A stretch of DNA of 64,000 bases from an uncultured Gammaproteobacteria bacterium (GTDB taxonomy: Bacteria; Patescibacteriota; Microgenomatia; Levybacterales; UBA12049), in assembly GCA_964483115.1 (NCBI GenBank), contig CAYZZF010000001.1, forward strand, positions 19,907 to 83,906, given 5' to 3'. A program made the translations under genes and the position numbers. Below are positions 6,562 through 64,000 of this stretch, in pieces. Within the stretch, counting starts at the first letter, position 1. The number at the start of each line of letters is the position of its first letter. The notes below the pieces were generated by a model, which ran no database searches, had not been told where the DNA came from, and was given only the letters and a program-made list of their open reading frames with translations.

Positions 6562-6562
6562 A

Positions 6563-7753
6563 ATGTCAAATCTCAAATCTCAAATCTCAAATCTCAAAAC
6601 TTTGGCATCTTTTTATTTGATAACAATTATTGCTTTATTCTTTTATTCTTTTACCCAAGTTGACTTAAATCTTACCTTGTCCAGGTGGTCTGTTTGGCAG
6701 GTAATTGAGAAATTTTTTCAGCATATAGGTTATTTTAACCGGCCACTCTCAACAAGTTTCTTTATTGCAATTATTGCATCGTTGTTTATCTTTTACATGA
6801 TATTTCTTTTCCTTTCTTACAAAAATAAGATTAGTGAAAAACAGGTATGGTATTTAATTATATTAACAGCTGTAATTTTATTATTTTCCTACAATGCATT
6901 TTCTTACGATTTATTCAACTATATCTTTGATGCAAAAATAATAACTTATTACCGTCAAAATCCGTATTTGCATCGTGCCCTTGATTTTCCTGCTGACCCG
7001 ATGCTTTCTTTTATGCGTTGGACGCATAGGTTTTATCCATACGGTCCGGTTTGGCTTGTCTTAACAGTTCCTCTATCGTTTGTTGGGTTTAATCACTTTC
7101 TTCCTACTTTTTTTCTTTTTAAGTTTCTCGGAGTCTTGAGTTTTCTAGGAACAGCCTTTTTTATAGGAAGGATTCTGCGCAAGATTTCTCCAGAAGATAA
7201 AATTTTTGGACTTATTCTTTTTGCATTTAACCCCCTAGTTATTATAGAAGGATTAGTATCGGCACATAATGATATGCCTATGATGTTTTTTGCCATATTG
7301 TCGCTATATCTCTTTTTAGAGAGGAAACATTTTTATTCATTTGTATCACTTCTTTTATCAATTGGGATTAAGTTTGCTACGGCATTTATAATTCCCGTTT
7401 ATGTTTATTTGCTTTTTAAGAGAAGACAAAAAGAGATCAACTGGAACAAAATCTTTATTTCGATAATTTTGCTTATGATTGTACCTATTATTATTGCAAC
7501 AATTAGGACCAATTTCCAACCATGGTATTTACTATATGTTCTGTCATTTACAGCTTTTATCAAAAAAAGTTTCTATGTGATTATTCCAGTTATCGTTTTA
7601 TCCTTTTTTTCTCTTTTAGAATATGTTCCTTTTCTATATCTTGGGAATTGGAATCCGCCGGTGCCGTTTATATTAAATTTGATTATGGTTATCTCAATTA
7701 TCGTCTCGATAGTTTTAATTATCGGCTGGAGATTTAGGCAAAAATATGCTTAA
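6563..7753 (+). CDS. polytopic membrane protein (about 10 TM), putative GT-C/DUF2029-like glycosyltransferase
   Basis: Hydrophobicity pattern. It is coupled 1 nt after the upstream DPM1-like gene. It begins with an in-frame (TCAAATC)x4 tract. Confidence 0.45.
   Translation: MSNLKSQISNLKTLASFYLITIIALFFYSFTQVDLNLTLSRWSVWQVIEKFFQHIGYFNRPLSTSFFIAIIASLFIFYMIFLFLSYKNKISEKQVWYLIILTAVILLFSYNAFSYDLFNYIFDAKIITYYRQNPYLHRALDFPADPMLSFMRWTHRFYPYGPVWLVLTVPLSFVGFNHFLPTFFLFKFLGVLSFLGTAFFIGRILRKISPEDKIFGLILFAFNPLVIIEGLVSAHNDMPMMFFAILSLYLFLERKHFYSFVSLLLSIGIKFATAFIIPVYVYLLFKRRQKEINWNKIFISIILLMIVPIIIATIRTNFQPWYLLYVLSFTAFIKKSFYVIIPVIVLSFFSLLEYVPFLYLGNWNPPVPFILNLIMVISIIVSIVLIIGWRFRQKYA
6566..6600 (+). repeat. (TCAAATC)x4 perfect plus one variant unit, in-frame immediately after the ATG of the CDS at 6563
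   Basis: Read directly: tcaaatc tcaaatc tcaaatc tcaaatc tcaaaac. Encodes SNLKSQISNLKT. Confidence 0.95.
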
Positions 7754-13331: not shown

Positions 13332-15077
13332 ATGAATTTTTTGAAAAAGTATCTAGGACTTCTAGTGGTTATTTTTCTTTCGATACCCTCTATTCTTTCT
13401 CTTTTTCACCCTGGGTTTTTCCCAATGCATGATGATACGCAAGTGGCGAGAGTTTTTGAGATAGGGAAGGCACTAAGAGATGGAATGTTTCCCGTGCGCT
13501 GGGTTGCAGATCTTGGATATGGATATGGTTACCCAATTTTTAATTTTTATGCACCGCTTGCTTATTATTTTGGAGGACTTCTAAGTATTTTAGGGTTTAA
13601 CGCACTTACCTCAACGAAAATTATGATGGGAACAGGAATTCTACTTTCAGGTATTTTTATGTATTTTTTTGCTCAGGAATTGTTTGGGAAGCTTGGAGGA
13701 GTAGTTTCAGGGTTATTTTATGTTTATGCGCCATATCATGCTGTTGATGTTTATGTTAGGGGCGATGTTGCGGAATTCTGGGCATACGCATTTATACCTT
13801 TAATGTTTCTTGGATTCTACAAATTAATCTCAAATCTTCCGCCTCGCAGCCAGACGAGTAAATCTAAAAACTTGAGATGGGTAATTGTTGGAGCGATTGG
13901 ATTTGCGGGAATTGTTCTATCTCATAATTTAACAGCTATGATGATAATACCATTTTTAATAATTATTCTATTATTCTATTGCTTCGTCGCTTTTAGAAAC
14001 AAGAACCTATTTACTATTTACTATTTACTATTTACTATTTTTTTGGGTTTACTTTTGTCTGCCTTTTATTGGTTACCTGCTCTTTTTGAAATGAAATCTA
14101 CAAATGTACTATCTCAAATTGGAGGAGGGGCAAATTTTCGAGATCACTTTGTTTGTTGGCAGCAGCTTTGGAGCTCTCCTTGGGGTTTTGGAGGTTCAAC
14201 CTCAGGGTGTATTGATGGAATATCTTTTATGGTTGGTAAATTATATATACTTATGTCTACAGCCGCAATTGTCTTAGCAACTTCTTTAATAAATAAAAAT
14301 TTAATCAGAAAAAAAGATAATAGCAAGATATTTTTTATTTTATTTTCAATTTTTGGACTGCTCGTTTCAGTATTCTTGACACTTGAAATATCTAAACCTG
14401 TTTGGGAGTTAATTTTCCCTATGGCATTTTTGCAATACCCATGGAGATTTCTTCTATTTACTTCGTTTTTTACTTCAGTTCTTGCCGGAGCGCTTTTCTG
14501 GTTTTTACGAATTTTATTTTATAAGTTTAGGCACTTTAATACTATATATTATTTAAGCGCAGTAATTGTGATCTTAGCTCTTATTTACCTTAACGCAAAA
14601 CTTTTTATACCACAAATAATTATTAACAAAAATAACAATGATTACACAAATAATGTTGCTCTCAAGTGGATCGCCTCAAAAATATCCGATGAGTATATGC
14701 CAAAAAACTTTAATAAACCTAAATCAGAAAACCAGATTGTAAATAACAAAATATTACCCGCAGAATCTAGTGTAAAAATTTTATACGGCGTTCAAGATAC
14801 TAAAAGTTTACAAGCTTTTATCGATGTTCCTAAAGATACAAAAGTTAAGATAAACACCGCCTTTTTTCCCGCATGGACTGCTTTTGTAGATGGTAAAAAA
14901 GCTGAGCTGTATGCAACAAATCAAGGAGTGAACATTTTTATGTCTTCGGGAAAACATACATTTAATATGGAGTTTATAGAAACGCCGATAGAAAAATTGG
15001 CTAATTTTATCTCTCTTACTGGCTTATTTATACTTATTATTGGTATAATTCCTCTAAAGAGAAGCCTATATAAATGA
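13332..15077 (+). CDS. polytopic membrane protein, GT-C-like family A, paralog 2
   Basis: Same N-terminal signature (LFHPGFFPMHDDT...GMFPVRWVADLGYGYGYP). Contains an in-frame (CTATTTA)x4 tract. Confidence 0.5.
   Translation: MNFLKKYLGLLVVIFLSIPSILSLFHPGFFPMHDDTQVARVFEIGKALRDGMFPVRWVADLGYGYGYPIFNFYAPLAYYFGGLLSILGFNALTSTKIMMGTGILLSGIFMYFFAQELFGKLGGVVSGLFYVYAPYHAVDVYVRGDVAEFWAYAFIPLMFLGFYKLISNLPPRSQTSKSKNLRWVIVGAIGFAGIVLSHNLTAMMIIPFLIIILLFYCFVAFRNKNLFTIYYLLFTIFLGLLLSAFYWLPALFEMKSTNVLSQIGGGANFRDHFVCWQQLWSSPWGFGGSTSGCIDGISFMVGKLYILMSTAAIVLATSLINKNLIRKKDNSKIFFILFSIFGLLVSVFLTLEISKPVWELIFPMAFLQYPWRFLLFTSFFTSVLAGALFWFLRILFYKFRHFNTIYYLSAVIVILALIYLNAKLFIPQIIINKNNNDYTNNVALKWIASKISDEYMPKNFNKPKSENQIVNNKILPAESSVKILYGVQDTKSLQAFIDVPKDTKVKINTAFFPAWTAFVDGKKAELYATNQGVNIFMSSGKHTFNMEFIETPIEKLANFISLTGLFILIIGIIPLKRSLYK
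14007..14041 (+). repeat. (CTATTTA)x4 perfect plus one variant unit, in-frame in the family-A gene at 13332
   Basis: Read directly: ctattta x4 then ctatttt. Encodes LFTIYYLLFTIF. Confidence 0.95.
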
Positions 15078-15822: not shown

Positions 15823-17277
15823 ATGGAAGAAATTGATGTCTCACTTATTACAAAAAGATCTATCCGTGGAGTTTTTGCTTTAGTTTATCGTACTTTTACA
15901 ATACAGTTGATAGGGTTTGTTGCAAATTTTTTATTAACTATCTTTTTGTCCCCGTCTATTTTTGGAGTTTTTTTTGTGGTGTCGGCGGCAATCGCTTTTT
16001 TGTCATATTTTTCAGACATCGGACTTGCTGCAGCACTTATTCAGAAAAAAGAGACAATTACACAGGAAGAGCTTCGTACTACATTTACGATTCAGCAGAT
16101 TCTTGTAATAGGAGTTGTTCTGGTTGCACTAGGTCTATCAAAATTTGTAGGTTCTTTTTACCAATTGCACAGTGATGGAGTTTTGCTTTTTCAGGCTCTA
16201 GTTTTTGCTTTTTTCCTTTCGTCTCTTAAAACAATTCCATCAATTATTTTAGAGCGGAATCTTGATTTTCAAAGACTGGTTATCCCACAAGTCGTTGAAA
16301 ATCTTTTTTTTAATGTTGTAGCTGTGGCTCTAGCCATCAAAGGTTTCGGAGTTACAAGTTTTACTTTTGCAGTATTAGCACGAGGGATTTCTGGAGTTAT
16401 TGCAATTTATTTGATAAGTCCATGGAAAATTAGACTTGGCTTCTCCAAAAAATCAGCCTCAAGACTTCTGTCTTTTGGTATTCCTTTTCAAGCGAATAGT
16501 TTTTTGGCTCTTATTAAAGACGACCTTCTTATTGTTTATCTTGGTAAGATTTTGCCGATTGCTCAAGTTGGTTATATAGGCTTTGCTCAGAAATGGGCTT
16601 TTACGCCTCTTAGACTTATAATGGATAATGTTATACGTATCACTTTTCCTTCTTTTTCAAGACTGCAGCAAAATAAAGAGGTTCTTGGTAAAGCTTTGGA
16701 AAAGTCAATATTTGCAGTATGTTTTTTTATTTTTCCTTCTCTTACAGGGCTTGTAATTCTTGCGCCTTATTTTGTAAACCTTATACCAAAATATACTAAA
16801 TGGGAGCCTGCGCTTTTTTCTCTTGCATTTTTTGCTCTCAATGCAGGATTATCTTCTATATCAACTCCACTGACCAATGTCCTTTCAGCAATTGGTAAGA
16901 TTAAGACAACTTTATATCTTATGGTTTTTTGGACAATTCTAACATGGGTATTAACGCCTATTTCCATATTTACATTAGGATTTAACGGCGTTTCTATAGC
17001 ATCTTTTGTTATTGCAACTTCGGTAGTTATTGTAGTTTACTTAGTAAGAAGACATATAGATTTTAATGTCTTAAGTACTGTAAGATATCCACTTTTTTCC
17101 TCAGTTATTATGGGAACCATGCTATATTTTGTAAGCCCATTGGTAATCAAAAATTTACTTACATTAATAGTTATAATTATCTTGGGTGCTATACTATATT
17201 TTGCAGCAGTCTTTATTTTTGCAAGAAAACAAATATTGTCTGATATACGGTTTGTTCGAAAAAATTTAACAGAATAA
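15823..17277 (+). CDS. polysaccharide/oligosaccharide flippase, Wzx/MOP superfamily
   Basis: About 14 TM. The N-terminal region is typical of polysaccharide biosynthesis (Wzx) proteins. The ORF-track start 15787 overlaps the upstream gene by 25 nt, so I prefer the ATG at 15823 (MEEIDV). Confidence 0.6.
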   Translation: MEEIDVSLITKRSIRGVFALVYRTFTIQLIGFVANFLLTIFLSPSIFGVFFVVSAAIAFLSYFSDIGLAAALIQKKETITQEELRTTFTIQQILVIGVVLVALGLSKFVGSFYQLHSDGVLLFQALVFAFFLSSLKTIPSIILERNLDFQRLVIPQVVENLFFNVVAVALAIKGFGVTSFTFAVLARGISGVIAIYLISPWKIRLGFSKKSASRLLSFGIPFQANSFLALIKDDLLIVYLGKILPIAQVGYIGFAQKWAFTPLRLIMDNVIRITFPSFSRLQQNKEVLGKALEKSIFAVCFFIFPSLTGLVILAPYFVNLIPKYTKWEPALFSLAFFALNAGLSSISTPLTNVLSAIGKIKTTLYLMVFWTILTWVLTPISIFTLGFNGVSIASFVIATSVVIVVYLVRRHIDFNVLSTVRYPLFSSVIMGTMLYFVSPLVIKNLLTLIVIIILGAILYFAAVFIFARKQILSDIRFVRKNLTE

Positions 17278-17280
17278 TTT

Positions 17281-18192
17281 ATGATCAGATTTTCTGTTGT
17301 TATAACTGCATATAATGAGGAAAATAAGATTGAAGAATGTCTTAAATCTGTCGGGTTTGCTGATGAGATAATTTTGATTAACAATTCCTCAACCGATAAA
17401 ACAATTGAAATTGCCAAAAGATACACATCAAATATCTTTACAAAACCAAATTATCCAATGCTAAACATTAACAAGAATTTTGGTTTTTCAAAGGCAAATG
17501 GAGAATGGATTTTAAACTTAGACGCTGATGAGAGAGTCACTCCGGAATTGGAAAAAGAAATTAAATCTGAAATCCAACAGCCAAAGTCCGAAATAAATGG
17601 ATATTGGATTCCAAGAAAAAATATTATTTTTGGCAAGTGGATCAAACATACGGGTTGGTATCCGGACCATCAGCTGAGGCTTTTTAAGAAAGGAAAAGGG
17701 CAGTTCCCCGAGAAGCATATTCATGAAATGATTAAACTTACCGGAAAAACAAACTATCTAAAAAATCCAATACTTCATTATAATTATGAAACTATCGAGC
17801 AGTTTTTAAATAAACTGATTAATATTTATACCCCGAATGAAGCAGAGCAACTGCTTGCGAATGGGTATATTCTTGATCTAAGAGATGCAATAAGATTCCC
17901 GGCACGTGAGTTCGTAAGCCGTTTTTTCGCAAGAGAAGGCTATAAAGATGGGTTTCATGGTTTAATACTATCTCTTCTTATGGCCTTTTATCATTTTGTA
18001 GTCTTTGTCAATATTTGGCAAAAAGAGGGTTTTAAGAGTATTGAGGATAAAGACTTACTGAAAGATATAGAAGATGAATTTAGGAAGACAAATAAAGAAT
18101 TGTTTTTTTGGTTTTCTAAAGAGAAGATGAAGACAGTTAAGAGCCCTTTTAGGAGATTAATTTACCGTGCTATCCAGAAACTTACTTTATGA
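17281..18192 (+). CDS. GT2 glycosyltransferase (WaaE/KdtX-like subgroup)
   Basis: FSVVITAYNEE...ADEIILINNSSTDKT. Paralogous to the CDSs at 19100 and 41352. Confidence 0.65.
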   Translation: MIRFSVVITAYNEENKIEECLKSVGFADEIILINNSSTDKTIEIAKRYTSNIFTKPNYPMLNINKNFGFSKANGEWILNLDADERVTPELEKEIKSEIQQPKSEINGYWIPRKNIIFGKWIKHTGWYPDHQLRLFKKGKGQFPEKHIHEMIKLTGKTNYLKNPILHYNYETIEQFLNKLINIYTPNEAEQLLANGYILDLRDAIRFPAREFVSRFFAREGYKDGFHGLILSLLMAFYHFVVFVNIWQKEGFKSIEDKDLLKDIEDEFRKTNKELFFWFSKEKMKTVKSPFRRLIYRAIQKLTL

Positions 18193-19873: not shown

Positions 19874-19946
19874 ACTAAATCACTAGAAGATAATAAAAAT
19901 AAAAATATTTGTAAGCCCATTAATTCCGCAGTATAATTCAAAATAA

Positions 19947-20513
19947 ATGAATCAGAATCAGCCGAAAGAAGAAATAGAAAAACTTATTGCTAGGTACAAA
20001 CAACTAAAGTCTTCTGGGAAAGCCAAAAGCTACACAGAGGAAGCCACAAAAAAAGATTTCGTCCTTCCCTTATTTAAGCTTTTAGATTGGAAGGTGGAGG
20101 AAGATGAAGTATCCGCAGAAGAATATATTAAGTCGTCAGGAAAGGCAGATTGCGGTTTTTATCTGACTGATAGAATCCAGTTCTATTTAGAGACAAAACA
20201 GTTAAAAGCTGATTTAGATAAGGAAGAATATGCTAATCAAACAATTAGGTATTCCTTCAATAAGGGCGCTACTTGGGCAGTTCTAGCTAATTTTGAAAGC
20301 ATTAAAGTTTTTAATGCGCAAGGTCTTTTTAAATATTTAGGCGATAAATTATATTTTGAAATAAAGTATTATTCAGAGTATTAAGATCGTTTTGATCAGT
20401 TGTGGTTATTATCAAGGGAGTCATTCAGCAACGATATAATTGATAAAGAAGGTAAAAAAATAGGTAAAAAGATACAAAAAGTCCCAATAACAGAGCAGCT
20501 TTATATCAAGTAG
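19947..20513 (+). pseudogene. remnant of a restriction-enzyme gene (HsdR N-terminal-like domain) with an in-frame TAA, truncated after about 190 codons
   Basis: TEEATKKDFVLPLFKLLDW resembles the HSDR_N domain. The frame continues in phase through a TAA at 20382-20384 (...DRFDQLWLLSRESF...) to a TAG at 20511. Confidence 0.4.
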
Positions 20514-20514
20514 T

Positions 20515-22854
20515 ATGTTTAAAAATTTTATTTTGAGGTTTTGGCCGGTTATTTTTATTTTTTTAATCTGGTTTATTTTTTCAAGTCCTTATTTTCTTAA
20601 AAATAGAGTCCCGTTCGCTTCGACTTATCAAGTTAATTTTTTTCCTCCTTGGAGCGCTTACCCCCAGTTTGCGGGTCCGGTTAAAAATAATGCAATGCCT
20701 GATGTTATTACTCAAATTTACCCATGGAAGCATTTTACAATAGAAACTTATAAACAAGGCCATATCCCTCTTTGGAATCCCTATAGTTTTTCAGGAACCC
20801 CACATCTTGCAAATTATCAGTCAGCAGTACTTTCCTCATTTAATTTATTGTTTTTTATAATGCCTTTTGTTGATGCATGGAGCATTCTTGTCCTTCTTCA
20901 ACCTCTTTTAGCTGGTATTTTTATGTATTTATTTACCAGAAGTCTTGAGAGGAGTAAATTTGCAAGCCTTATCGCATCTATCTCGTTTATGTTTTCTGGA
21001 TTTATTACTGTTTGGATGGGTTATGCGACTTTAGGATACGCCATTTTATTTTTACCTCTTTGCCTTTTTGCAATAGAAAAATATTATAAGACAGCCAAGT
21101 TCAAGTTCTTAATTCTACTTTCTATAACTATTCCCCTATCTTTCTTCAGCGGTCATTTCCAAATTAGCTTATATTTTTTAGCGACAATCTTTATTTACGT
21201 TATTTATAAATTTATCACTACTAAAAATATACATAATACTTTATATGTAATACTTTATACTTTTTTTGGTCTGCTTTTGGCAATGCCGCAGCTACTCCCA
21301 TCAATAGAGTTCTATTCTCAATCATTCAGAAGTAAATTATTCCAGATACAAGAAGCAATTCCTTGGCAATATATCCCAACATTTTTAGCTCCTGATTTTT
21401 TCGGCAACCCTGTTACTAGAAATGATTGGTTCGGACATTATGCCGAATGGAATGGTTATATAGGAGTTTTACCTATAATGCTTGCTTTTTATAGTATTTT
21501 AGGTAAAAAAAAAGTTCAAACACTTTTTTTATTCATTTTTGGCATTATCACCATTTTTTTGGCGTTTAATACACCCTTATTAAATCTTATCATAAATCTT
21601 CATATACCTGTTTTATCTACCAGTGCCGCAAGCAGAATTATAGTTATCTATAGTTTTCTTTTTACTACCTTGTCAGCTTTTGGGTTTGATCAACTTATTA
21701 AAGATATAAAATATGGAAATTTGAAGAAAATCATTATTTGGTTTGTTGCATTTTTATTAGTTTTTATAGTTTTATGGGCGATAGTTATTTTAAAATTATT
21801 TATACCGGCCGAACGAATTATCGTTGCTAGACAAAATCTTATTCTACCAACACTTATTTTTCTTGTTTCTTATTTCTTAATTTTTATCGGAGTTGTTTTT
21901 AGAAGATACAGTAAAAACTCCCTTTTTATATTGTCACTTTCTATAATTTTAATTTTTGTCGTTTCTTTTGATATGCTCAGATTTACGTTAAAATGGCAAG
22001 CTTTCGACCCTAAAAATTTAGTTTTTCCTGATGTTAAAACTACTAGGGAATTCTCTAAAATTTTAGGATACGAACGAGTGTTAGGCAATCTTGAAGGAGA
22101 AGATACTGTTTATTATAGCATTCCCTCTGTTGATGGATACGATGCTTTGTACATTAAAAGATATGGTGAATTTATAGCTTCGCTTGACAATGGAAAAATT
22201 AAAGAATCTTACCGTTCTGTAGTCGCTTTTCCAAAAAATGGTATATATACCCCAAAAGCAATTAACCTTTTAGGAATTAAATATATTATCCATAAGGTAG
22301 CCGATAATAATAAAGCTTGGGCTTTCCCGTTTGGGTCTTATCCAAAGGGAAACTTTAATCTTATTTATGATGACGGCAGGTATCAAATTTTTGAAAACAA
22401 AACTGTTTTTCCCCGCGTGTTTTTAGTAGGCGAGTATAAAGTTATTACAGACCCTCAAAAGATTATTGATACAATGTTTAGTGATAATTTTAATTTAAAG
22501 AAAGAAATTGTCTTAGAAAAAGACCCGGGTATTAAGAAAACAAAACAAGATATAGGCAGTGCAAATATTACCAATTACAGTCCAGATCAAATAGATATTG
22601 ATGTTGCCGTAAATAATCAAGGGCTGCTTTTTTTGTCTGATAGCTATTACAGAGACTGGAAAGCCGAGATTGATGGGGTAGATACACCGATTTATAGAGC
22701 TGATTATACTTTTAGAGCAATTAAGGTTCCTTCAGGAAAGCACATAATTAGATTTATTTATGACCCAAAGAGTTTTAGATTAGGAATCTATCTAGCAGTT
22801 TTGGGGATAATTCTTATTTTAGTACTAGTACCTAGGCATGATCCCAAAATTTAA
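20515..22854 (+). CDS. yfhO: YfhO-family GT-C membrane glycosyltransferase (paralog)
   Basis: QIYPWKHFTIETYKQGHIPLWNPYSFSGTPHLANYQSAVLS. Confidence 0.75.
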   Translation: MFKNFILRFWPVIFIFLIWFIFSSPYFLKNRVPFASTYQVNFFPPWSAYPQFAGPVKNNAMPDVITQIYPWKHFTIETYKQGHIPLWNPYSFSGTPHLANYQSAVLSSFNLLFFIMPFVDAWSILVLLQPLLAGIFMYLFTRSLERSKFASLIASISFMFSGFITVWMGYATLGYAILFLPLCLFAIEKYYKTAKFKFLILLSITIPLSFFSGHFQISLYFLATIFIYVIYKFITTKNIHNTLYVILYTFFGLLLAMPQLLPSIEFYSQSFRSKLFQIQEAIPWQYIPTFLAPDFFGNPVTRNDWFGHYAEWNGYIGVLPIMLAFYSILGKKKVQTLFLFIFGIITIFLAFNTPLLNLIINLHIPVLSTSAASRIIVIYSFLFTTLSAFGFDQLIKDIKYGNLKKIIIWFVAFLLVFIVLWAIVILKLFIPAERIIVARQNLILPTLIFLVSYFLIFIGVVFRRYSKNSLFILSLSIILIFVVSFDMLRFTLKWQAFDPKNLVFPDVKTTREFSKILGYERVLGNLEGEDTVYYSIPSVDGYDALYIKRYGEFIASLDNGKIKESYRSVVAFPKNGIYTPKAINLLGIKYIIHKVADNNKAWAFPFGSYPKGNFNLIYDDGRYQIFENKTVFPRVFLVGEYKVITDPQKIIDTMFSDNFNLKKEIVLEKDPGIKKTKQDIGSANITNYSPDQIDIDVAVNNQGLLFLSDSYYRDWKAEIDGVDTPIYRADYTFRAIKVPSGKHIIRFIYDPKSFRLGIYLAVLGIILILVLVPRHDPKI

Positions 22855-23068: not shown

Positions 23069-23132
23069 GTTTAGAGAATAACATAGAGTAAAGAGCTTTG
23101 CAAGAGGTAGAAAAGTTGATAGAATTAAGACT

Positions 23133-27502: not shown

Positions 27503-28215
27503 AATTATCAATTATAATGCCTGTTTTTAATGAGGAGAAAACAATACGAGATATTCTTGGAAAAGTGGTTGCTGTAGATATCCAAGGTGTTAGCAAAGAA
27601 ATTATTGTTGTTGATGACGGATCGACTGATGCTAGCGCATCTCAAATCTCAAATCTCAAATCTCAAAACTTAAATTTTAAATTTATACAACATAAAAAAA
27701 ATATGGGGAAAGGAGCAGCTGTTAGGGCAGGAATTGAAAATTCGACAGGGGATTATATCATAATTCAAGATGCGGATTTGGAATATGAGCCAAATGATAT
27801 AAAAAAACTTATTGCGCCAGTTCAAAAGGGCCAAGCACAGGTTGTATATGGGACAAGACTTAATCGCCTGCCGAATTTTACAAGAGATGAGAGAACCTTT
27901 CTTTTTCTGCTGCACTATCTTGGTAACAGATTCTTAAGTCTTGTAACAAGCATTTTATACAGACAGTGGATTACCGATATGGAAACCTGCTATAAACTTT
28001 TTCCCAAAAAAGCTTTAGAGAAAGTAAAACTTAATTCTAGAAGATTTGATTTTGAACCGGAAATCACTTCTAAGTTACTTAAGAAAGAGTATAAAATTTT
28101 AGAAGTACCAATCGTAACTAAACCTAGGGGATACGATGAAGGGAAAAAACTTCACACAATAAGGGATGGATCTATAGCTTTATGGACATTAATAAAATAC
28201 AGATTTATCGATTAA
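27499..28215 (+). CDS. GT2 polyprenyl-phosphate sugar synthase (DPM1/GtrB-like)
   Basis: LSIIMPVFNEE, VVDDGSTDAS and IQDADLEYEP. Has an (ATCTCAA)x4 tract after DDGSTDAS. Confidence 0.7.
   Translation: MKLSIIMPVFNEEKTIRDILGKVVAVDIQGVSKEIIVVDDGSTDASASQISNLKSQNLNFKFIQHKKNMGKGAAVRAGIENSTGDYIIIQDADLEYEPNDIKKLIAPVQKGQAQVVYGTRLNRLPNFTRDERTFLFLLHYLGNRFLSLVTSILYRQWITDMETCYKLFPKKALEKVKLNSRRFDFEPEITSKLLKKEYKILEVPIVTKPRGYDEGKKLHTIRDGSIALWTLIKYRFID
27639..27685 (+). repeat. (ATCTCAA)x4 perfect plus degenerate units, in-frame in the GT2 gene at 27499
   Basis: atctcaa x4 then aacttaa attttaa. Encodes SQISNLKSQNLNFK. Confidence 0.95.
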
Positions 28216-34616: not shown

Positions 34617-36302
34617 GTGAAGAGAACTAATTTTATCTTAATTTTTATTATTATAGTAGCCGCTTTTTTACGCTTTTATCAACTTGGGACAAATCCTCCT
34701 TCATTGACCTGGGATGAAGTGGCCTGGGGATATAATGCTTACTCTTTGGGACTTGATGGGAAAGATGAATTTGACAGATTTTTACCCGTTGATTATTTAG
34801 AGTCATTTGGGGATTTTAAGCCTCCTGTTTATGCATATCTAGATGTCATTCCGATAAAATTATTTGGACTCACCACCTTTGCGGTGAGATTCCCCTCTGC
34901 TTTTTTTGGCGTTCTTACGGTTTTACTAACTTATTTTTTGGTAAAAAGAATATTCTATAATTCAAAAAATAAAGAACTTTATGCTTTATTCTCCACTTTT
35001 ATTCTTGCAATATCTCCTTGGCATATTTTGCTCTCTCGTGCGGCATTTGAGGCAAACGTTGCATCATTTTTCATCGTAATGGGCATGTTTCTTTTTTTCA
35101 AGGCAATATCTCAAGGTGTAGCCTCTATATCACCTCGGAGGTGGGGTTATATTTACACCTTAGGATTTTTTCTTATCTTGTCTGTTATCTCTTTTATTCT
35201 TTCTATGTATACTTTTAGCACCGCAAGAATTATTGCTCCTCTTTTAATTATAATTTTAGCAGTAGGTTTTAGAAAAGAGCTTCTTTCGCGAAAAAAAGAA
35301 ATAGCTCTTGCAATTATTCTCGGATTTTTTTTGCTATTGCCACTTATAAATTTTTTATTTACACCAGCTGCAAGTCTTAGGTTTAGAGAGGTAAATATTT
35401 TTTCCGATATAGCTGTTATTGAGAATACAAATCAGGAAATTACCAATGATAATGATGCTATTTGGTCAAAAGTAATTCACAATAGACGCTTTGCTTATGC
35501 TGTATCTTATTTCAGACATTATTTTGATAATTTAAGTCCAAGCTTTCTTTTTATAAAAGGAGATGGAAATCCTAAGTTTTCAACTCAAACAGTTGGAGAA
35601 ATGTACTTATGGGATTTGCCATTTTTCATTGTTGGTGTTTTTCTGCTTATTAAAAGAAAAGAAGGCAATTGGTGGATTATTCCCGCTTGGCTTATCTTAG
35701 GAATAATTCCTGCCGCGACTGCTCGTGAAACCCCCCATGCTTTAAGAATCGAAGCAACACTTCCGACTTTCCAAACCATAACCGCAATTGGAGTAAGTTC
35801 GTTTATAATCTGGATAAAGAATCTAAGACTAAAAAAATATTTTAAATCTTTAATTGTCATTTTTATATTTTCATTTTTAATTTTTAATTTTGTATATTTT
35901 TATCATGATTATTTTGCGCATTATTCAAGAATTTATTCGGGAGAATGGCAGTATGGATACAGAGATTCAATTGAGTATGTAAAAAGCGTTCAAAATCAAT
36001 ATGACGAAATCCGCATTACAAATAAATTGGGAAGACCATATATATATTATCTATTTTATACAAATACAAACCCTAAGATATTTAGAAAAACTGCACAAAT
36101 TAAAAGAGATTCTTTTGGATTTGTGACCATCCGCGGATTTTCTAAATATCGTTTTTCGGACAGTCTTTTGTCAATAAAAGATAAAGCAAGGAGAGTCCTT
36201 TATATCGATATTCCAGCAAGAGTTCCAAAAAAAGTAGAGATTTTGAAATCGTTTTACTTACTTAACGGAGAGAAAATGCTGGTTGCCTATAGAGAAAATT
36301 GA
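34617..36302 (+). CDS. GT-C membrane glycosyltransferase (ArnT/PMT_2-like), first of three tandem paralogs
   Basis: GTNPPSLTWDEVAWGYNAYSL...DEFDRFLPV...FKPPVYAYL. GTG start. Confidence 0.6.
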   Translation: MKRTNFILIFIIIVAAFLRFYQLGTNPPSLTWDEVAWGYNAYSLGLDGKDEFDRFLPVDYLESFGDFKPPVYAYLDVIPIKLFGLTTFAVRFPSAFFGVLTVLLTYFLVKRIFYNSKNKELYALFSTFILAISPWHILLSRAAFEANVASFFIVMGMFLFFKAISQGVASISPRRWGYIYTLGFFLILSVISFILSMYTFSTARIIAPLLIIILAVGFRKELLSRKKEIALAIILGFFLLLPLINFLFTPAASLRFREVNIFSDIAVIENTNQEITNDNDAIWSKVIHNRRFAYAVSYFRHYFDNLSPSFLFIKGDGNPKFSTQTVGEMYLWDLPFFIVGVFLLIKRKEGNWWIIPAWLILGIIPAATARETPHALRIEATLPTFQTITAIGVSSFIIWIKNLRLKKYFKSLIVIFIFSFLIFNFVYFYHDYFAHYSRIYSGEWQYGYRDSIEYVKSVQNQYDEIRITNKLGRPYIYYLFYTNTNPKIFRKTAQIKRDSFGFVTIRGFSKYRFSDSLLSIKDKARRVLYIDIPARVPKKVEILKSFYLLNGEKMLVAYREN

Positions 36303-38026
36303 TGTTTGGGTTGAAAATGAATAAAAAAATTGTTTATCTTTGTCTTTTTTTGATTATTATTACTGCCTCAATATTAAGATTATGGCAGTTAGGAAATGTT
36401 CCGCCTTCTCCAGATTGGGATGAGGCTGCTCTTGGGTATAATGCATATTCGATTTTACATACAGGCCGCGACGAGTATGGAAAGTTATTGCCGATTGTAC
36501 TTAGGTCATTTGATGATTATAAGCCTGCTTTATATGCATATTTAGTCATTCCATTTATCAAAATAATTGGTCTAAATGTAGTCGCGGTAAGATTACCTTC
36601 AGTAATCTTTGGCATACTGACTGTTATTGCAACATATTTCTTGGTTAAAGAATTACTCGGCGAAAAACTCAAAGCTCAAAATGCAAATCTCAAAATTGTA
36701 ACTCAAAACTCAAAAGTTGAACCACTTGCTCTTTTAACAGCGTTTTTACTTGCAATTTCTCCCTGGCACATCCAATTTTCAAGAATTGCGTTCGAATCAA
36801 ATGTTGGTCTTGCATTTAATGTTTTCTTTGTATTTTTCTTTCTCAAAGGTCTTAAAAAACCATGGTTGCTTATTTTATCTGCTTTCTTTATGGGAATAAA
36901 TATATATGTCTATCAGAGTGAAAAAGTTTTTACCCCGCTTTTACTTTTAGCGCTTGTCGTGATATTTAGAAAAGAGCTTTTTTCTATTCCTAAAAAATAT
37001 ATTATTTATGCAGTAGTTATTGGTATTTTGGTGTTTTTACCAATGGCAGGATATATCATTAGCAACAAAAACGTTTTTGAAAGAGCGCAAGGAGTCAGTA
37101 TCTTTGCAGAGTCCTCACAGCTTTTGGAAGAAAATTCTAAAAAACTTCTTGTTGATAGGCAAAACAATGATTTCTTAGGTCTCATACTAGATAACCGCCG
37201 TATCGTTTTTGCCAAAGAGATTATATCAGGATATGTTTCGCACTTTAATCTTAATTGGCTTTTTATAACTGGTGATATTGCAAGGCATCATGCTCCTAAT
37301 ATGGGACTTTTGTATCTTTTCGAATTACCATTCTTGTTTGTTGGTATCTATGAGTTGATTTTTGGTAAGTTTGATAAAAAAATAAAGTTTTTAATATTTT
37401 CGTGGTTTCTTATTGCACCTATACCAGCGTCAATTACAAGTGGAGTGCCTCATGCGGTTAGGTCCCTCAATTTTCTTCCCATGTTCCAAATATTTATAGC
37501 ATTAGGAATAGTTAGCAGTATTGCTTTAATTTCAAATTTTAAATTTAAAATTTTAAATTTTAAAATATGGAAACTATTTGCTATTTGCTATTTGCTATTT
37601 GCTATTTTTAATTTTTTATATTATTTAGACCAATATTTTGTTCAGCTTAATTATTTTAACTCAAAAGATTGGCAGTATGGCTATAAACAAACAATAGATA
37701 CCGTTAAGCAGATAGAAGTAAAATATAAAAAAATTATTGTATCTAACCAGCCATATTTAGATCAGTCTTATATGTTTTTTCTCTTTTACTTAAAATACCC
37801 ACCCGAATTGTATCAGAAAGAATCAAAATTTGCTTCTGGGGGTTTTAGAGAAAATCATAAATTTGGAAAATTTGAATTTAGGCCATTTAATTTTGAAAAT
37901 GAAAAAGAAACAGAAGTTTTGTATATAGGAAGACCGCTTGATTTTCCGCAAAATGACTTAGGACAAGTAAAAACCATAAATTTTTTAGATGGAACTCCGG
38001 CAATAAAAATGGTTGAAAGATTATGA
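36299..38026 (+). CDS. GT-C membrane glycosyltransferase (ArnT/PMT_2-like), second tandem paralog
   Basis: GNVPPSPDWDEAALGYNAYSIL...DEYGKLLPI...YKPALYAYL. Carries a degenerate heptamer tract plus (AAATTTT)x4 and (CTATTTG)x4 tracts. Confidence 0.6.
   Translation: MMFGLKMNKKIVYLCLFLIIITASILRLWQLGNVPPSPDWDEAALGYNAYSILHTGRDEYGKLLPIVLRSFDDYKPALYAYLVIPFIKIIGLNVVAVRLPSVIFGILTVIATYFLVKELLGEKLKAQNANLKIVTQNSKVEPLALLTAFLLAISPWHIQFSRIAFESNVGLAFNVFFVFFFLKGLKKPWLLILSAFFMGINIYVYQSEKVFTPLLLLALVVIFRKELFSIPKKYIIYAVVIGILVFLPMAGYIISNKNVFERAQGVSIFAESSQLLEENSKKLLVDRQNNDFLGLILDNRRIVFAKEIISGYVSHFNLNWLFITGDIARHHAPNMGLLYLFELPFLFVGIYELIFGKFDKKIKFLIFSWFLIAPIPASITSGVPHAVRSLNFLPMFQIFIALGIVSSIALISNFKFKILNFKIWKLFAICYLLFAIFNFLYYLDQYFVQLNYFNSKDWQYGYKQTIDTVKQIEVKYKKIIVSNQPYLDQSYMFFLFYLKYPPELYQKESKFASGGFRENHKFGKFEFRPFNFENEKETEVLYIGRPLDFPQNDLGQVKTINFLDGTPAIKMVERL
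36665..36714 (+). repeat. degenerate 7-nt periodic tract (aaactca aagctca aaatgca aatctca aaattgt aactcaa aactcaa) in the GT-C gene at 36299
   Basis: Read directly. Confidence 0.75.
37534..37608 (+). repeat. two adjacent heptamer tracts, (AAATTT[T/A])x4 then (CTATTTG)x4 plus one variant unit, in-frame in the GT-C gene at 36299
   Basis: aaatttt aaattta aaatttt aaatttt ... ctatttg x4 ctatttt. Encodes FKILNFKIWKLFAICYLLFAIF. Confidence 0.9.
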
Positions 38027-39714
38027 GAAATCTTAAGATTCTTTTTCTTTTAAGTATTATTCTTTTGGCCGTATTCTTACGTTTTTATAAATTAAATACC
38101 GTTCCACCGAGTGCCTCTTTAGACGAGGCAAGCATTGGTTTTAATGCTTACTCAATTCTTCAAACAGGAGAGGATGAGTACGGATATAAATTTCCCATTC
38201 TTCTCAGAGCTTACGATGATTGGCGCCCTGCGCTTTACGTTTATCTTGTCATTCCATTTGTAAAAATTTTTGGTCTTGATGCTATATCGGTGCGCTTACC
38301 TTCGGTGATTCTTTCAGTTCTAACTATTTTAGCAACTTATTTTTTGGTAAAAAAACTTTTTAAACTCAAAACTCAAAACTCAAAACTCAAAAATACAATT
38401 CAAAATTCAAAAGAATCAGAAATTAGTAGTTTGAGATTAGAAATTTTAGCTTTGCTTTCAATAGGATTGTTCGCGATATCCCCATTGAGTGTATATATTT
38501 CAAGACTTGGCCACGAAGCAAATCTAGGACTATTTTTTGTTGTTTTTGGAATTTTATTTTTTCTGCTTTCGCAAAGAAAAAAAACGTTTCTTATTCTTTC
38601 TGCAATTTTTTTTGCTCTATCTTTATATTCATATCAGAGTGAAAAAATATTTGCCCCGCTTATAGTTATTGCTCTGGGTATTATATACAGAAAAGAGCTT
38701 TATAAGATAAAAAAAACTCTTTTACTATCTATTGTTATAGGATTATTAATTTCGATTCCAATTTTAGCTGCTTCTTTTTCTCCGCAAGCGCTTATTAGAT
38801 TTAAAGGAACCAGCGCATTTGATGCTTCTAATCCTTTATATAGTCAAAGCGCAAAACGTCTTCTTATAAGTCGGCAGAAGAGCGATATTATTGGTGAGGT
38901 TCTAAACAATAGACGAATAACAAGCGTATATATTTTTATTTCCCAATATTTTTCAAATTTTAATCCGCAATGGATTTTTGAGAATCGTGGAAACGAATCA
39001 TTTAAAGCGCCAGGAGTTGGACTTTTATATTTTTGGGAGGCTCCGTTTCTTTTGGTTGGGATATTTTCCCTTTTCAAAAATAAATATTCATCAAAGACAA
39101 AAGCTGTTGTCGCTTCTTGGGCTCTAATAGCTTTTGTTGCTCCTTCTATAACAACTCAAGCCCCTCATGCTATGAGATCTTACAATGTATTGCCAATACC
39201 TCAGATTTTGATTGGCCTTGGGATCCTTGAAATGGGTAAATTCTTCCCTAAAAAGCTTGGAATTATTTTGCTTGCCATTTTAGTGGTTTCTCAACTTTAC
39301 TACTTCTTTAATCAATATTTTTTTGTTTTTCCAAGAACGGAATCATCTTCATTTCAATATGCTTTATCAAATGTAATGCCTTATGTTTCTAGAGTCAAAA
39401 ATAAATATAAAACTGTTGTAATTTCAAATAGGGATAACTTATACCAATCTTATATGTTTTATCTTTTTTATACTAGATATAAGCCAACATTGTATTTAGG
39501 AAACGGAGGTACTGTATCTGGCGGATTTGCTCAAACGCATAAAATTGACAATCTTTTGTTTAAGCCCATTTCTTTTAAAGATAATGCAATAGAAGGGAAA
39601 ACCCTTTATGTAGGTAATCCTTCGGATTTTCCAAAATCCGAAGCTAGTCTTCTTATGTTTGAAAACCTTGATGGAAAACCTGCCGTAGAAGTGGTATCAA
39701 AAAATGAAAATTAA
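38023..39714 (+). CDS. GT-C membrane glycosyltransferase (ArnT/PMT_2-like), third tandem paralog
   Basis: NTVPPSASLDEASIGFNAYSIL...DEYGYKFPI...WRPALYVYL. Carries an (AAACTCA)x4 tract. Confidence 0.6.
   Translation: MRNLKILFLLSIILLAVFLRFYKLNTVPPSASLDEASIGFNAYSILQTGEDEYGYKFPILLRAYDDWRPALYVYLVIPFVKIFGLDAISVRLPSVILSVLTILATYFLVKKLFKLKTQNSKLKNTIQNSKESEISSLRLEILALLSIGLFAISPLSVYISRLGHEANLGLFFVVFGILFFLLSQRKKTFLILSAIFFALSLYSYQSEKIFAPLIVIALGIIYRKELYKIKKTLLLSIVIGLLISIPILAASFSPQALIRFKGTSAFDASNPLYSQSAKRLLISRQKSDIIGEVLNNRRITSVYIFISQYFSNFNPQWIFENRGNESFKAPGVGLLYFWEAPFLLVGIFSLFKNKYSSKTKAVVASWALIAFVAPSITTQAPHAMRSYNVLPIPQILIGLGILEMGKFFPKKLGIILLAILVVSQLYYFFNQYFFVFPRTESSSFQYALSNVMPYVSRVKNKYKTVVISNRDNLYQSYMFYLFYTRYKPTLYLGNGGTVSGGFAQTHKIDNLLFKPISFKDNAIEGKTLYVGNPSDFPKSEASLLMFENLDGKPAVEVVSKNEN
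38362..38410 (+). repeat. (AAACTCA)x4 perfect plus three degenerate units, in-frame in the GT-C gene at 38023
   Basis: aaactca x4 then aaaatac aattcaa aattcaa. Encodes KLKTQNSKLKNTIQNSK. Confidence 0.95.
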
Positions 39715-43862: not shown

Positions 43863-44917
43863 ATATAGCAATAGATATCTCGCCCCTTAAGAGCGGACAT
43901 TTTTTACAACACAGAGTTAGAGGAACAGGTTTTTATATAGATAATTTAAAAAGATCATTAATGAAATATTTTCCAGACAATAAATACACTTTTTTTACTC
44001 GAGGAGAAAAACTGTCCAAAGATATAGACTTAGTTCACTATCCTTATTTTGAGCCATTTTTTTTGACACTTCCTCTAGTTAAAAATCGCAAATCAGCTAT
44101 TACAATTCATGATTTGACTCCTCTTGTTTTTTCAAATGCTTTTCCAAGAGGAATAAGAGGAGAAATTAAATGGCAAATTCAAAAAAAACTTTTGGAAAGA
44201 GCAGATGTAATTATTACAGATTCAGAATGTTCAAAAAAAGACATTACTAGGTATACTGGTATACCTGACAAAAAAATTAATGTCGTTTATCTTGCAGCAG
44301 GAGAACAGTTTAAAAGAATCAAGAATCAAGAATCAAGAATCAGGGATCTGAAAACAAAATATGGATTGCCTGAAAGGTTCGTACTCTATGTAGGCGATGT
44401 TACCTGGAATAAAAATCTGCCAAGGCTGATCGAAGCGATAAAAAAGATTAATGCTACTTTGGTTATGACTGGCAGGACTTTAGCAAGTAAAGATTTTGAC
44501 CGCAATAATCCTTGGAACCAAGATCTAGTTCGGGTTCAAGAATTGGCAAAAGACGATAAAAGAATTATCCGCTTGGATTTTGTTCCGACAGGAGATTTAG
44601 TCTTTCTCTACAATATGGCCACTGTCTTTGCAATGCCCAGCTTATATGAGGGGTTTGGCTTGCCGATTCTCGAGGCTATGAGCTGCGGTTGCCCTGTTGT
44701 AACATCAAAAGAGGGTTCTTTGGAAGAAATTGCAAAAGATGCAGCTTTTTATGTAGATGCATATAATGTCGAAAGCATTGCAAAAGGGATTAAACAATTA
44801 TTTGCAAGCGACAGCCTGAGAAGAGAATTTTCAAAAAAAGGACTGGAACAGGCGAAAAAATTTTCATGGAAAAAAACAGCAGAAGATACTTTAAAAGTAT
44901 ATAAGAAAGTATTGTAA
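43859..44917 (+). CDS. GT4 (GT-B fold) glycosyltransferase
   Basis: EGFGLPILEAMSCGCPVVTSKEGSLEEI. Carries an (AAGAATC)x4 tract. Confidence 0.7.
   Translation: MNIAIDISPLKSGHFLQHRVRGTGFYIDNLKRSLMKYFPDNKYTFFTRGEKLSKDIDLVHYPYFEPFFLTLPLVKNRKSAITIHDLTPLVFSNAFPRGIRGEIKWQIQKKLLERADVIITDSECSKKDITRYTGIPDKKINVVYLAAGEQFKRIKNQESRIRDLKTKYGLPERFVLYVGDVTWNKNLPRLIEAIKKINATLVMTGRTLASKDFDRNNPWNQDLVRVQELAKDDKRIIRLDFVPTGDLVFLYNMATVFAMPSLYEGFGLPILEAMSCGCPVVTSKEGSLEEIAKDAAFYVDAYNVESIAKGIKQLFASDSLRREFSKKGLEQAKKFSWKKTAEDTLKVYKKVL
44314..44341 (+). repeat. (AAGAATC)x4 perfect, in-frame in the GT4 gene at 43859
   Basis: aagaatc x4. Encodes KNQESRIRD. Confidence 0.95.
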
Positions 44918-62131: not shown

Positions 62132-64000
62132 ATTATTTCTATTTGTATTTATTTTATTAACGCTAACAGTTTTTAAAAATTGGTTTTTTTTAAATCCCCT
62201 TTCTTCGGGTGACTGGAGTTATAACTTCAGCGAGTCTATAAAAACTTTTACAATTTTTCCTTACTCTTGGTTTTTTAACTTAAATGCAGGACTTGGGGGC
62301 ACAAGCCTTTTTATTTTGTCTTTGAGTTCTTATTTTTTATTTACAACATCTTTTTTGTTTAATTTTTTCAAAATTCCCTGGGTTTTAATAGAAAGATTGG
62401 TCTGGTTTTGGCCGTTTTTATTAATTTCTGCTTTCTCCTCTTATTTTTTGTTTAAAAAATTATTTTCTGAAAAGTTCGCATTACTCTCATCTTTTATTTT
62501 TCTTTTTAACTCCTACATCTTAATGATCGTCGGAGGCGGGCAAATGGGTGTAGCATTTGCTTATGCCATGGCTCCGCTAGTTTTATATGTTTTTATTAAA
62601 ACCATTGATTTTTTTAATTTTTCAAAAAATAATATTCAATTTTCAATTTTCAATTTTCAATTACCTTTACTTTCAGGGTTATTATTTTCAATTCTGGTTT
62701 TGTTTGATTTAAGGATTGCGTATATATGCATAACTTCCGTAATGCTGTATTTGGTATTAAATATAAAGTATAAAGTATCAAAAAATAACTTTTTGCGTAT
62801 CTTAAATTTAATTTCTTATTCTTTGATAATTCCGGCGGTAATTACATTTCTTTTGAATTCTTTTTGGATAATTCCGTTGATAGCAGGCGGGAAAAATCCA
62901 CTTGTAGAACTAGGCAGTGTTTACAGCTCTTTAGAGTCGGTTAAATTTTTCAGTTTTGCTAAATTTGAGAATTCTATCGGACTTCTGCATCCAAATTGGC
63001 CGGAGAATATTTTCGGAAAAGTCGGTTTTATGAGACCTGAGTTTCTATTTCTACCAGTACTTGCTTATGCAAGTCTGTTTTTTGCAGCAAAGATTAAAGA
63101 TTCAAGATTAAAGACTTATGTTATTTATTTTGCGTTATTAGGGTTAATCGGAGCTTTTTTGGCAAAAGGGGTAAACGAACCTTTTGGCAGAATATACCTT
63201 TGGCTTTTTAATCATTTCACGGGATTTGTGATGTTTAGGGACCCGACTAAGTGGTACACGCTAGTTGCAGTTTCATATTCAGTTTTAATTCCATTCACTG
63301 TATGGAAGTCTTATGAGTGGTTGAAGTCGCAATCAAAATTTCAAATCTCAAATTTCAAATTTCAAATAAGGTCCAAATCTCAAATTCTCAATTTTCAAAA
63401 CTTATTTTTTTTGCTTGTTACCGGTTACTTGTTGTTCTTAATTAGACCGGCATTTTTTGGTCAATTAACAGGCACATTTAAGCCCCATGAAATTCCAAAG
63501 GATTATATAAGGCTTGAAGAATTTTTAAGCAGTAAAAAAGACTTCTTCAGAATCCTTTGGGTTCCAGAGTGGCAGCGGTTCGGTTTTTTTTCCAATAACC
63601 ACCCGGCAATAGGAGGAGGGGAGATTTTTAAGAAAGATGCAGAAAATCAGATAAAACAGCTTAAACAAAAAGGTACAGAAGGCTTGCTTGAAGATCTGTC
63701 AGTCAAGTATATTATTATTCCTTATGATTCGGAGAAAGAGATATTTCTAAGAGACAGAAAGTATGATGATAAATTGTATGAGAAGAGCATAACTGAAACT
63801 AGGAAAATTAAATGGCTCAGGGAGATTGACGGCTTTGGAAAAATCAAAGTTTTTGAAGTCCCAAATCCCAAAGATCATTTTTGGAGCCCCTCGACTAACC
63901 TTCAAGTTAAATACAGGTATGTTAATCCGACGAAATATGAAGTTTATGTAAAAAATGCAAAAAAGGGAGACTTATTAGTATTCTCGGAGGGTTTTGATAA
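62115..64000 (+). CDS. polytopic GT-C-like membrane protein, 3' end outside the window
   Basis: The frame is open from a GTG at 62115 (VKNYFKLFLFVFILL...) to the window edge (more than 628 codons, no stop) and is not in the ORF track. It has multiple TM helices followed by a hydrophilic C-terminal region, and carries two degenerate heptamer tracts. Confidence 0.5.
   Translation, partial: MKNYFKLFLFVFILLTLTVFKNWFFLNPLSSGDWSYNFSESIKTFTIFPYSWFFNLNAGLGGTSLFILSLSSYFLFTTSFLFNFFKIPWVLIERLVWFWPFLLISAFSSYFLFKKLFSEKFALLSSFIFLFNSYILMIVGGGQMGVAFAYAMAPLVLYVFIKTIDFFNFSKNNIQFSIFNFQLPLLSGLLFSILVLFDLRIAYICITSVMLYLVLNIKYKVSKNNFLRILNLISYSLIIPAVITFLLNSFWIIPLIAGGKNPLVELGSVYSSLESVKFFSFAKFENSIGLLHPNWPENIFGKVGFMRPEFLFLPVLAYASLFFAAKIKDSRLKTYVIYFALLGLIGAFLAKGVNEPFGRIYLWLFNHFTGFVMFRDPTKWYTLVAVSYSVLIPFTVWKSYEWLKSQSKFQISNFKFQIRSKSQILNFQNLFFLLVTGYLLFLIRPAFFGQLTGTFKPHEIPKDYIRLEEFLSSKKDFFRILWVPEWQRFGFFSNNHPAIGGGEIFKKDAENQIKQLKQKGTEGLLEDLSVKYIIIPYDSEKEIFLRDRKYDDKLYEKSITETRKIKWLREIDGFGKIKVFEVPNPKDHFWSPSTNLQVKYRYVNPTKYEVYVKNAKKGDLLVFSEGFD
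62636..62663 (+). repeat. (TCAATTT)x3 plus one variant unit, in-frame in the terminal GT-C-like gene
   Basis: tcaattt tcaattt tcaattt tcaatta. Confidence 0.9.
63341..63400 (+). repeat. degenerate (TCAAAT[C/T])n tract (tcaaatc tcaaatt tcaaatt tcaaata ... aaatctc aaattct caatttt) in the terminal GT-C-like gene
   Basis: Read directly. Encodes KFQISNFKFQIRSKSQILNFQN. Confidence 0.8.

Follow-up and report, generated by a model that had tools for sequence, protein, structure and literature searches.

Two heptanucleotide coding microsatellites with a near-identical unit in two membrane glycosyltransferase genes of a Levybacteria glycan island

Heptameric simple sequence repeats (SSRs) are reported to be over-represented in many bacteria, and a polymerase-footprint slippage hypothesis has been put forward for them (PMC4692102). 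Over-representation of heptamers was reported in 2007 (ref. 33 of PMC4692102), and the described cases include tandem heptanucleotides of cyanobacteria and a GGGAATC unit in Xanthomonas. Here, we describe two perfect arrays of the heptamer CTATTTR, located in two membrane glycosyltransferase genes (gene A and gene B) on a stretch of 64,000 nt, hereafter the window, that spans positions 19,907 to 83,906 of contig CAYZZF010000001.1 (assembly GCA_964483115.1). The named homologs are mostly from Candidatus Levybacteria, of the Candidate Phyla Radiation (CPR), and the nearest orthologs are just 55–75% identical. As in the bacterial heptameric SSRs described so far, 7-nt units are enriched here over other unit lengths, and slippage has been proposed for both. 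In contrast, those SSRs were described mainly from intergenic regions and are often G-rich, whereas the arrays found here are AT-rich, lie in frame in genes of a CPR bacterium and contain 4–5 copies. Our literature searches found no report of heptamer SSRs or of SSR-based phase variation in the CPR.

In neuO of Escherichia coli K1, (AAGACTC)n coding repeats phase-vary an O-acetyltransferase, and 65.6% of genomes are in the OFF state. The arrays resemble neuO in that a heptanucleotide unit lies in the open reading frame (ORF) of a surface glycan-modifying enzyme and a change by a number of units that is not a multiple of three shifts the frame. However, the neuO repeats lie at the 5′ end, encode a hydrophilic sequence, number 3–53 copies and are OFF in about two thirds of genomes, whereas the arrays described here are situated mid-gene, encode parts of membrane helices, have a fixed length of approximately 34 nt and are in frame wherever the frame could be scored. 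In the opa genes of Neisseria, CTCTT coding repeats occur in the leader peptide region, and slippage leads to ON/OFF frameshifts. The CTCTT repeat encodes the hydrophobic core of the leader peptide. The opa repeat is similar in being pyrimidine-rich and coding, within the leader peptide region, and in having a unit length not divisible by three. It differs in that the unit is a pentamer, the site is an N-terminal signal peptide, the copy number varies widely and switching has been measured at approximately 1e-3, while the arrays described here are heptamers in internal helices of polytopic enzymes. Miniature mobile elements and dispersed short repeats also place a short sequence at non-homologous sites, but no shared flanks, terminal repeats, insertion relative to orthologs or structure were found for the two arrays. 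The arrays belong to the coding microsatellites, a known kind, and are candidate contingency loci; the fixed-length slot that they occupy is unusual.

Two perfect CTATTTR arrays within membrane helices

The presence of four full CTATTT[A/G] units in two membrane glycosyltransferase genes, noted in a first-pass annotation of this DNA, was confirmed, and both runs were found to be perfect over 4.86 copies. The start of the first run at 14007 was also confirmed, while its end lies at 14040, one base before the annotated position of 14041. The arrays and the genes that carry them are as follows.

14007..14040, + strand: perfect heptanucleotide array (CTATTTA)x4.86, 34 nt, four CTATTTA units followed by CTATTT; encodes LFTIYYLLFTIF
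37574..37607, + strand: perfect heptanucleotide array (CTATTTG)x4.86, 34 nt, four CTATTTG units followed by CTATTT; encodes LFAICYLLFAIF
13332..15077, + strand: gene A, predicted 581-aa GT-C-fold membrane glycosyltransferase (PTPS_related/YfhO-like; assigned from ortholog Pfam matches, AlphaFold2 and Foldseek)
36299..38026, + strand: gene B, predicted 575-aa PMT_2 (GT39/ArnT-like) GT-C glycosyltransferase (assigned from Pfam and ortholog names)

Tandem Repeats Finder reported period 7, 4.9 copies and 100% matches for 14007–14040, and the run at 37574–37607 has 100% matches over its 34 nt. In Markov-1 simulations, the expected number of period-7 arrays of at least three copies was 0.00. The dimer CTATTTRCTATTT has eight matches in the window compared to 0.93 expected, a number reached in 0 of 100 shuffles, and all eight fall within the two arrays; no CTATTTR dimer was found elsewhere in the window. 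Both arrays are runs of head-to-tail perfect copies beyond chance, which is what defines a microsatellite. The tracts are not an assembly artefact, because an independent Logan assembly matches the window at 100% over 11,114 nt (16555–27668, a stretch that contains neither CTATTTR array), Logan also contains the exact products of genes A and B, and the CTATTTR arrays are present in orthologs of other metagenomes too.

Each array lies in codon phase 0 of its ORF (aa 226–237 of gene A and aa 426–437 of gene B) and supplies the initial 12 residues of a membrane helix. For gene A, this is helix H226–242 as predicted by AlphaFold2, which begins with the array-coded residues; these fall within a hydrophobic segment at residues 224–252. 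The array of gene B lies in a hydrophobic segment at residues 418–444, which is the last such segment found, and a conserved YYLNQYFVQQNYF stretch follows directly downstream. The positions of the two helices are not equivalent. The location of both arrays in hydrophobic segments agrees with the earlier suggestion that a T-rich unit is tolerated in a membrane segment.

A Pfam scan of gene A itself gave no match at E ≤ 0.01, but its orthologs carry PF10131, PF09586 or PF13231. Its AlphaFold2 model (predicted local distance difference test 80, predicted template modelling score 0.87) matched AglB, STT3, ArnT, AftA and AftD in Foldseek with E values of 1.8e-5 to 3e-3, and the modelled product is a polytopic membrane domain with GT-C architecture. 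Gene B matched PMT_2 in Pfam at 29.7 bits, above the gathering threshold of 26.1, and its orthologs bear the name glycosyltransferase family 39. That the two proteins are homologous was considered and not accepted, as the similarity between them was not significant (BLASTP E 0.026; hhalign probability 0.5%), although both have or match the GT-C fold (Foldseek for A, PMT_2 for B). The two genes had been called unrelated, and this holds at the level of sequence.

Unit turnover in a slot of fixed length

The window contains seven perfect period-7 arrays of at least four copies and none at periods 5, 6 or 8–12, and all window arrays are in frame within genes. There were 14 short proto-arrays of at least 2.5 copies at period 7 compared to 0.43 expected (Markov-1), which indicates growth in place. 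The period-7 bias was also found in 322 kb of related loci.

The array of gene A was compared among 80 metagenome loci. Its site lies between a basic loop and a conserved GLxLSAFYWxPAL motif, and the half-helix encoded there is a recurrent heptamer-array slot of fixed length. Other units found in the slot among the 80 loci were CTGTTTA, TACATAC, TTATTCA and TTCTATA, with constant helix length, and L176 carries (TTTGGAT)x4.4 in the same slot. Loci L482 and L123 share 70% protein identity and have unrelated perfect arrays after the same Lys codon, in a 12-codon slot of equal length: (AATTTTC)n encoding FSIFNFQFSIF in L482 (gene 289–2016) and (CTATCTA)n encoding LSTIYYLLSTIF in L123. The L123 array runs for 4.7 copies with a C in every unit, so that the variant has swept the whole array. 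Moreover, a paralog upstream of the gene A ortholog in L123 has (ATTCTTT)x4.86, also 34 nt, in the homologous slot (573–606), and the YfhO paralog of the window (ORF 20515) has a degenerate array there. An array is present at the slot in just ~15–20% of orthologs.

In locus L122, a perfect 34-nt CTATTTA array like that of gene A was found, offset by one base, even though L122 and gene A share only 65% DNA identity and an identical codon at just 52% of conserved residues; this match argues for maintenance at the DNA level. Among pairs of gene B orthologs that carry arrays, the arrays were 81–94% identical compared to approximately 61–69% gene-wide. The CTATTTG arrays of gene B orthologs range from 21 to 32 nt, and two orthologs contain a 14-nt double unit, alternating A/G in L202 and C/T in L205. 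Both array sites lie within gap-free alignment blocks of 60–70 orthologs, and since the helices are aligned without gaps or change in length, the arrays are not insertions. Turnover between relatives, as expected of slippage dynamics, was found in the form of arrays of 21–35 nt, swept variants, double units and wholly different units. The limitation of perfect arrays to period 7, the higher identity of arrays than of whole genes, the unit sweep in L123, the arrays of other units at constant helix length in orthologs and an array distribution out of step with gene phylogeny support the earlier proposal of a tract-generating process at the DNA level. It had been added that the tract does not represent ancestral protein sequence; the DNA periodicity is indeed dynamic, but the helix that it encodes is ancestral and constant in length.

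Origin and function of the arrays

These findings are probably best explained by two independent heptanucleotide coding microsatellites, made and re-homogenized in place by slippage, with convergence on a near-identical unit. Slipped-strand mispairing would make the arrays and repeatedly re-homogenize them, in a lineage of Levybacteria where 7 nt appears to be the sole array-forming unit length. Each array would fill a low-constraint slot of fixed length in a GT-C glycosyltransferase of its own, namely the 12 codons with which a membrane helix begins, and selection would hold it at approximately 31–35 nt, so that reading frame and helix length are kept while the unit turns over. The arrays may be mutable enough for frameshifted (OFF) variants to arise in populations. 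The near-identical unit would be the result of convergence, as few AT-rich units are stop-free and hydrophobic in all three frames.

Few units are usable, because all three frames of a heptamer array are translated: 1612 of the 2344 heptamer unit classes are stop-free, and only 148 yield residues compatible with a helix in every frame. For two helix-compatible units, the composition-weighted chance of lying within one mismatch of each other is 0.13, and once coding constraints are counted the common unit is only weakly beyond chance (P about 0.13). A scan of 185,579 species genomes gave at least 120 CTATTTR arrays from very diverse phyla, compared to approximately 0.03 expected by chance (rough arithmetic from the size of the collection). 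Among the matches listed, many are in frame and encode LFTIYYLLFT or LFAICYLLFA as signal peptide cores or helices. Unrelated proteins of other phyla with such arrays include an M50-family protease, Lgt, a PMT_2 protein, an SBP_bac_5 lipoprotein and a TPR protein. The modal array length among the matches listed (L001–L120) was 34 nt, both inside and outside long open frames. Within long open frames the listed arrays rarely exceed 37 nt, and others reach 103 nt; the AT-rich arrays were also seen in genomes of 64–71% GC (L002, L009, L050). In IMG/VR, CTATTTR was found at 62 loci compared to 37 and 38 for permuted units of the same composition. An intrinsic preference for CTATTTR was considered and rejected, since the permuted units are within 1.7-fold.

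The distribution of arrays among orthologs bears on how they are inherited. No clustering of array-bearing orthologs with overall similarity was seen (permutation P 0.19 and 0.08), and three of four close pairs of gene B were discordant for the array; simple vertical inheritance was rejected on these grounds. A sharp patch of difference of ~40 nt with well conserved flanks separates L202 from L206. Over aa 381–437, L208 is closer to L017 (0.82–0.89) than to its close relative L209, which suggests a short recombinant block. Both recurrent growth in place and short-patch exchange between orthologs are possible. It was also considered that array-type and non-array-type helices of gene B are related by frameshift, but shifting the alignment by one base, by hand, gave no improvement over the in-frame one.

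Several observations weigh against independent arrays made by slippage. Slippage as the mechanism is suggested by comparative patterns only, and the replacement of one unit by another at constant length is unusual and outside what the slippage model explains. A hexamer control yielded at least 120 loci in IMG/VR compared to 62 for the heptamer, so that heptamer dominance is not universal; a universal heptamer bias was ruled out by this control, and the exclusive bias seen here is lineage-specific because hexamers outnumber heptamers in that collection. The seven units of the window form four near pairs compared to 0.445 expected for random stop-free units (P = 0.0027), a repertoire narrower than stop-freedom explains, which we tentatively attribute to peptide filtering. 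The two arrays are also alike in length, rotation and codon phase, which is more coincidence than the unit alone presents, though 34 nt is modal. Finally, arrays are present or absent without regard to gene phylogeny, and exchange of short patches among orthologs may contribute.

A second explanation, which concerns function and is compatible with an origin by slippage, is that the arrays are selected contingency loci in which slippage by one unit switches glycosyltransferases ON or OFF, giving combinatorial variation of surface glycans that could serve, for instance, in defence against phage or in attachment to a host. This is a tentative reading to which we give clearly less weight than to the slippage origin itself, and phase variation at these arrays is plausible but unproven. 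A unit length that is not a multiple of three within the ORF of a surface glycan enzyme shifts the frame, as in contingency genes. A gain or loss of one or two units truncates the product of gene A to 247–258 aa (of 581) and that of gene B to 432–447 aa (of 575), while a change of three units keeps the frame in both genes. By sequence and model, A and B are predicted GT-C glycosyltransferases in a glycan island, as expected of genes with surface- or environment-facing products. This island of 58 kb occupies approximately 5800–64000 of the window and comprises ~12 GT-C paralogs (PMT_2, YfhO, PTPS_related, GT87 and AftD-like), ~12 GT2 genes, ~7 GT4 genes, two flippase-like genes, and dTDP-sugar, epimerase and aminotransferase genes; it holds all seven perfect arrays among its many redundant GT-C, GT2 and GT4 paralogs. 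One of these arrays (6566–6598) lies at codons 2–12, like that of neuO, and the AAGACTC coding repeats of neuO and the CTCTT repeats in the opa leader peptide are precedents for switching. Furthermore, a perfect array is kept at the slot whatever its unit or peptide, even with the polar FSIFNFQ in a helix, as expected if mutability were selected, and unit sweeps at constant length would be easiest via OFF states.

However, no convincing OFF allele was found among the CPR arrays of at least 24 nt with at least 40 open codons on both sides, which are in frame, nor was a frameshift at the array found in any of the 80 gene A metagenome loci (0/80), compared to 65.6% OFF genomes for neuO; arrays adjoining a start codon or contig end could not be scored for frame. 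A single locus, L075, was flagged as a frame switch, yet its array lies in frame within an intact Lgt ORF of 257 aa. ON and OFF lengths, which a contingency gene shows side by side, were thus not both observed, with power limited by the lack of conspecific strains and by a retrieval biased towards intact genes. The 90%-identity clusters of seven array-bearing proteins had one member each (the ORF at 62106 was not looked up). The arrays have only 4–5 copies, both lie mid-gene or in the 3′ third and not at the 5′ end, just ~15–20% of orthologs have an array at the slot, and the CTATTTR unit occurs elsewhere in housekeeping genes (Lgt, M50-family protease).

An extended form of selected switching, more speculative still, is that Levybacteria, and perhaps other CPR, possess a heptanucleotide ‘phasome’. 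Slots of fixed length, in membrane helices as well as loops of many GT-C, GT2 and GT4 glycosyltransferases, would be overwritten again and again by perfect 7-nt arrays of changing unit, which would be kept for reversible switching and moved by short-patch recombination, and this would give combinatorial variation of surface glycans in an episymbiotic bacterium.

A third explanation is that the tract spread between genes A and B by DNA copying, through a mini-element, ectopic gene conversion or template switching. For this pair it is largely refuted and we regard it as very improbable. The agreement of the arrays in unit (six of seven bases), length (34 nt), rotation and codon phase would fit copying, as would the narrow unit repertoire of the window (P = 0.0027) and an exact string of 33 nt, including 5 nt past the perfect run, that the arrays starting at 6562 and 27639 share in unrelated genes; array-type helices are also mosaic among orthologs, and one short block looks recombinant. 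Against this, a longest-common-substring scan of the two CTATTTR loci gave no common string of 12 nt or longer, and the flanks are without similarity. Extended common flanks had been named by the first-pass annotation as the sign of an ordinary duplicated segment; they were looked for, and such a segment is rejected on this result. All four full units differ between the arrays, A versus G, so that no recent conversion took place between them. Neither array is an insertion relative to orthologs, and each array type, CTATTTA or CTATTTG, recurs at its own site in several other Levybacteria. No terminal repeats were found at the two arrays, and no DNA secondary structure better than that of shuffles was found there (minimum free energy 0 to −3.1 kcal/mol), so that neither the shared flanks or termini nor the presence and absence among orthologs that mark a mobile mini-element were seen. 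The unit also arises independently in unrelated genes of many phyla, and permuted units are about as common. The earlier proposal of tract spreading did not hold on these grounds, and the earlier interpretation as a whole is partly supported.

Finally, protein-level selection for a helix motif with a 7-residue period, with DNA periodicity as a by-product, is scarcely credible, because, although the gene A slot has the family consensus xxTIYYLLxTIxLGL and L121 keeps TVYYLLSTIF with non-periodic DNA, a 7-aa repeat requires just 21-nt periodicity, rare codons (CTA, TAC) are imposed by a perfect 7-nt period, L122 shares the 34-nt array DNA while identical codons are otherwise found at ~50% of conserved residues, and the perfect arrays of orthologs encode quite different peptides at the slot.

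Other heptamer arrays of the window and significance

The remaining heptamer arrays of the window are listed below.

6566..6598, + strand: perfect array (AATCTCA)x4.7, codons 2–12 of GT87-like ORF 6563
27639..27667, + strand: perfect array (ATCTCAA)x4.1, in GT2 ORF 27499
38362..38392, + strand: perfect array (AAACTCA)x4.4, in PMT_2 ORF 38023
44314..44342, + strand: perfect array (AAGAATC)x4.1, in GT4 ORF 43859
62635..62662, + strand: perfect array (AATTTTC)x4, in a large membrane protein ORF beginning at 62106 and continuing past the window end
37528..37564, + strand: imperfect heptamer array (AATTTTA-like), encodes loop ISNFKFKILNFKI, just upstream of the gene B array
36664..36715, + strand: degenerate heptamer array (AAAACTC), in a gene B loop of variable length
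21228..21263, + strand: degenerate heptamer array (TATACTT), in YfhO paralog ORF 20515, in the helix that aligns with the gene A array

At the site of the 37528–37564 array, gene B orthologs have (AAGTATY)n of equal length. The membrane protein ORF at 62106–64000 (631+ aa) has arrays at 62631 (FSIFNFQ), 63089 (KIKDSRLK) and 63336 (KFQISNFKFQ). The units AAACTCA and AAAACTC (arrays 38362–38392 and 36664–36715), which encode KLKTQNS, are one mismatch from the neuO unit AAGACTC. The two arrays occupy homologous loop positions of tandem PMT_2 paralogs, and the length of this loop is highly variable among orthologs, where other heptad-coded inserts (FSIFNFQ, KILNTKY, LEIGNWK) were found.

The 33-nt string common to the AATCTCA arrays at 6562–6598 (GT87-like) and 27639–27675 (an unrelated GT2) is ATCTCAAATCTCAAATCTCAAATCTCAAAACTT. 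A related array at 26709–26744 contains AAGACTC itself. The Logan contig (21,096 nt) ends within the array at 27668, and its other end falls at ~6573, inside the 6562–6598 array (calculated, not read). Logan assemblies are assumed to use 31-nt k-mers. Array polymorphism was considered for these contig ends and rejected; they look like an assembly break at a common repeat, because the 33-nt common string exceeds the assumed k-mer.

In the GT2 ORFs 41352 and 19037, the Pfam GT2 match stops near short heptamer-periodic stretches (41650–41675 and 19380–19398, at aa 100 and ~110, respectively), which probably represent an array-coded loop insert that splits the domain; no alternative frame of at least 90 aa was found at these stretches. 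On a Saccharibacteria contig (L107), six overlapping GTAAATC/GTAAATA arrays lie in one short open frame at 4286–4493 (RFTIYDLRFTIYDL), which suggests that further CPR lineages also have coding segments rich in heptamers.

The slot is of interest regardless of function, as close relatives have unrelated perfect arrays in a slot of fixed length and so provide a clear natural example of microsatellite birth, homogenization and replacement under strict length selection in a coding helix. It also calls for caution, since a repeat unit common to unrelated genes need not mean common descent when three-frame reading restricts the usable units so strongly. Provided that the arrays are mutable, they would hint at SSR-based phase variation in the CPR, whose cell surface biology is little known, and would point to glycan switching as a feature of the lifestyle of these bacteria.

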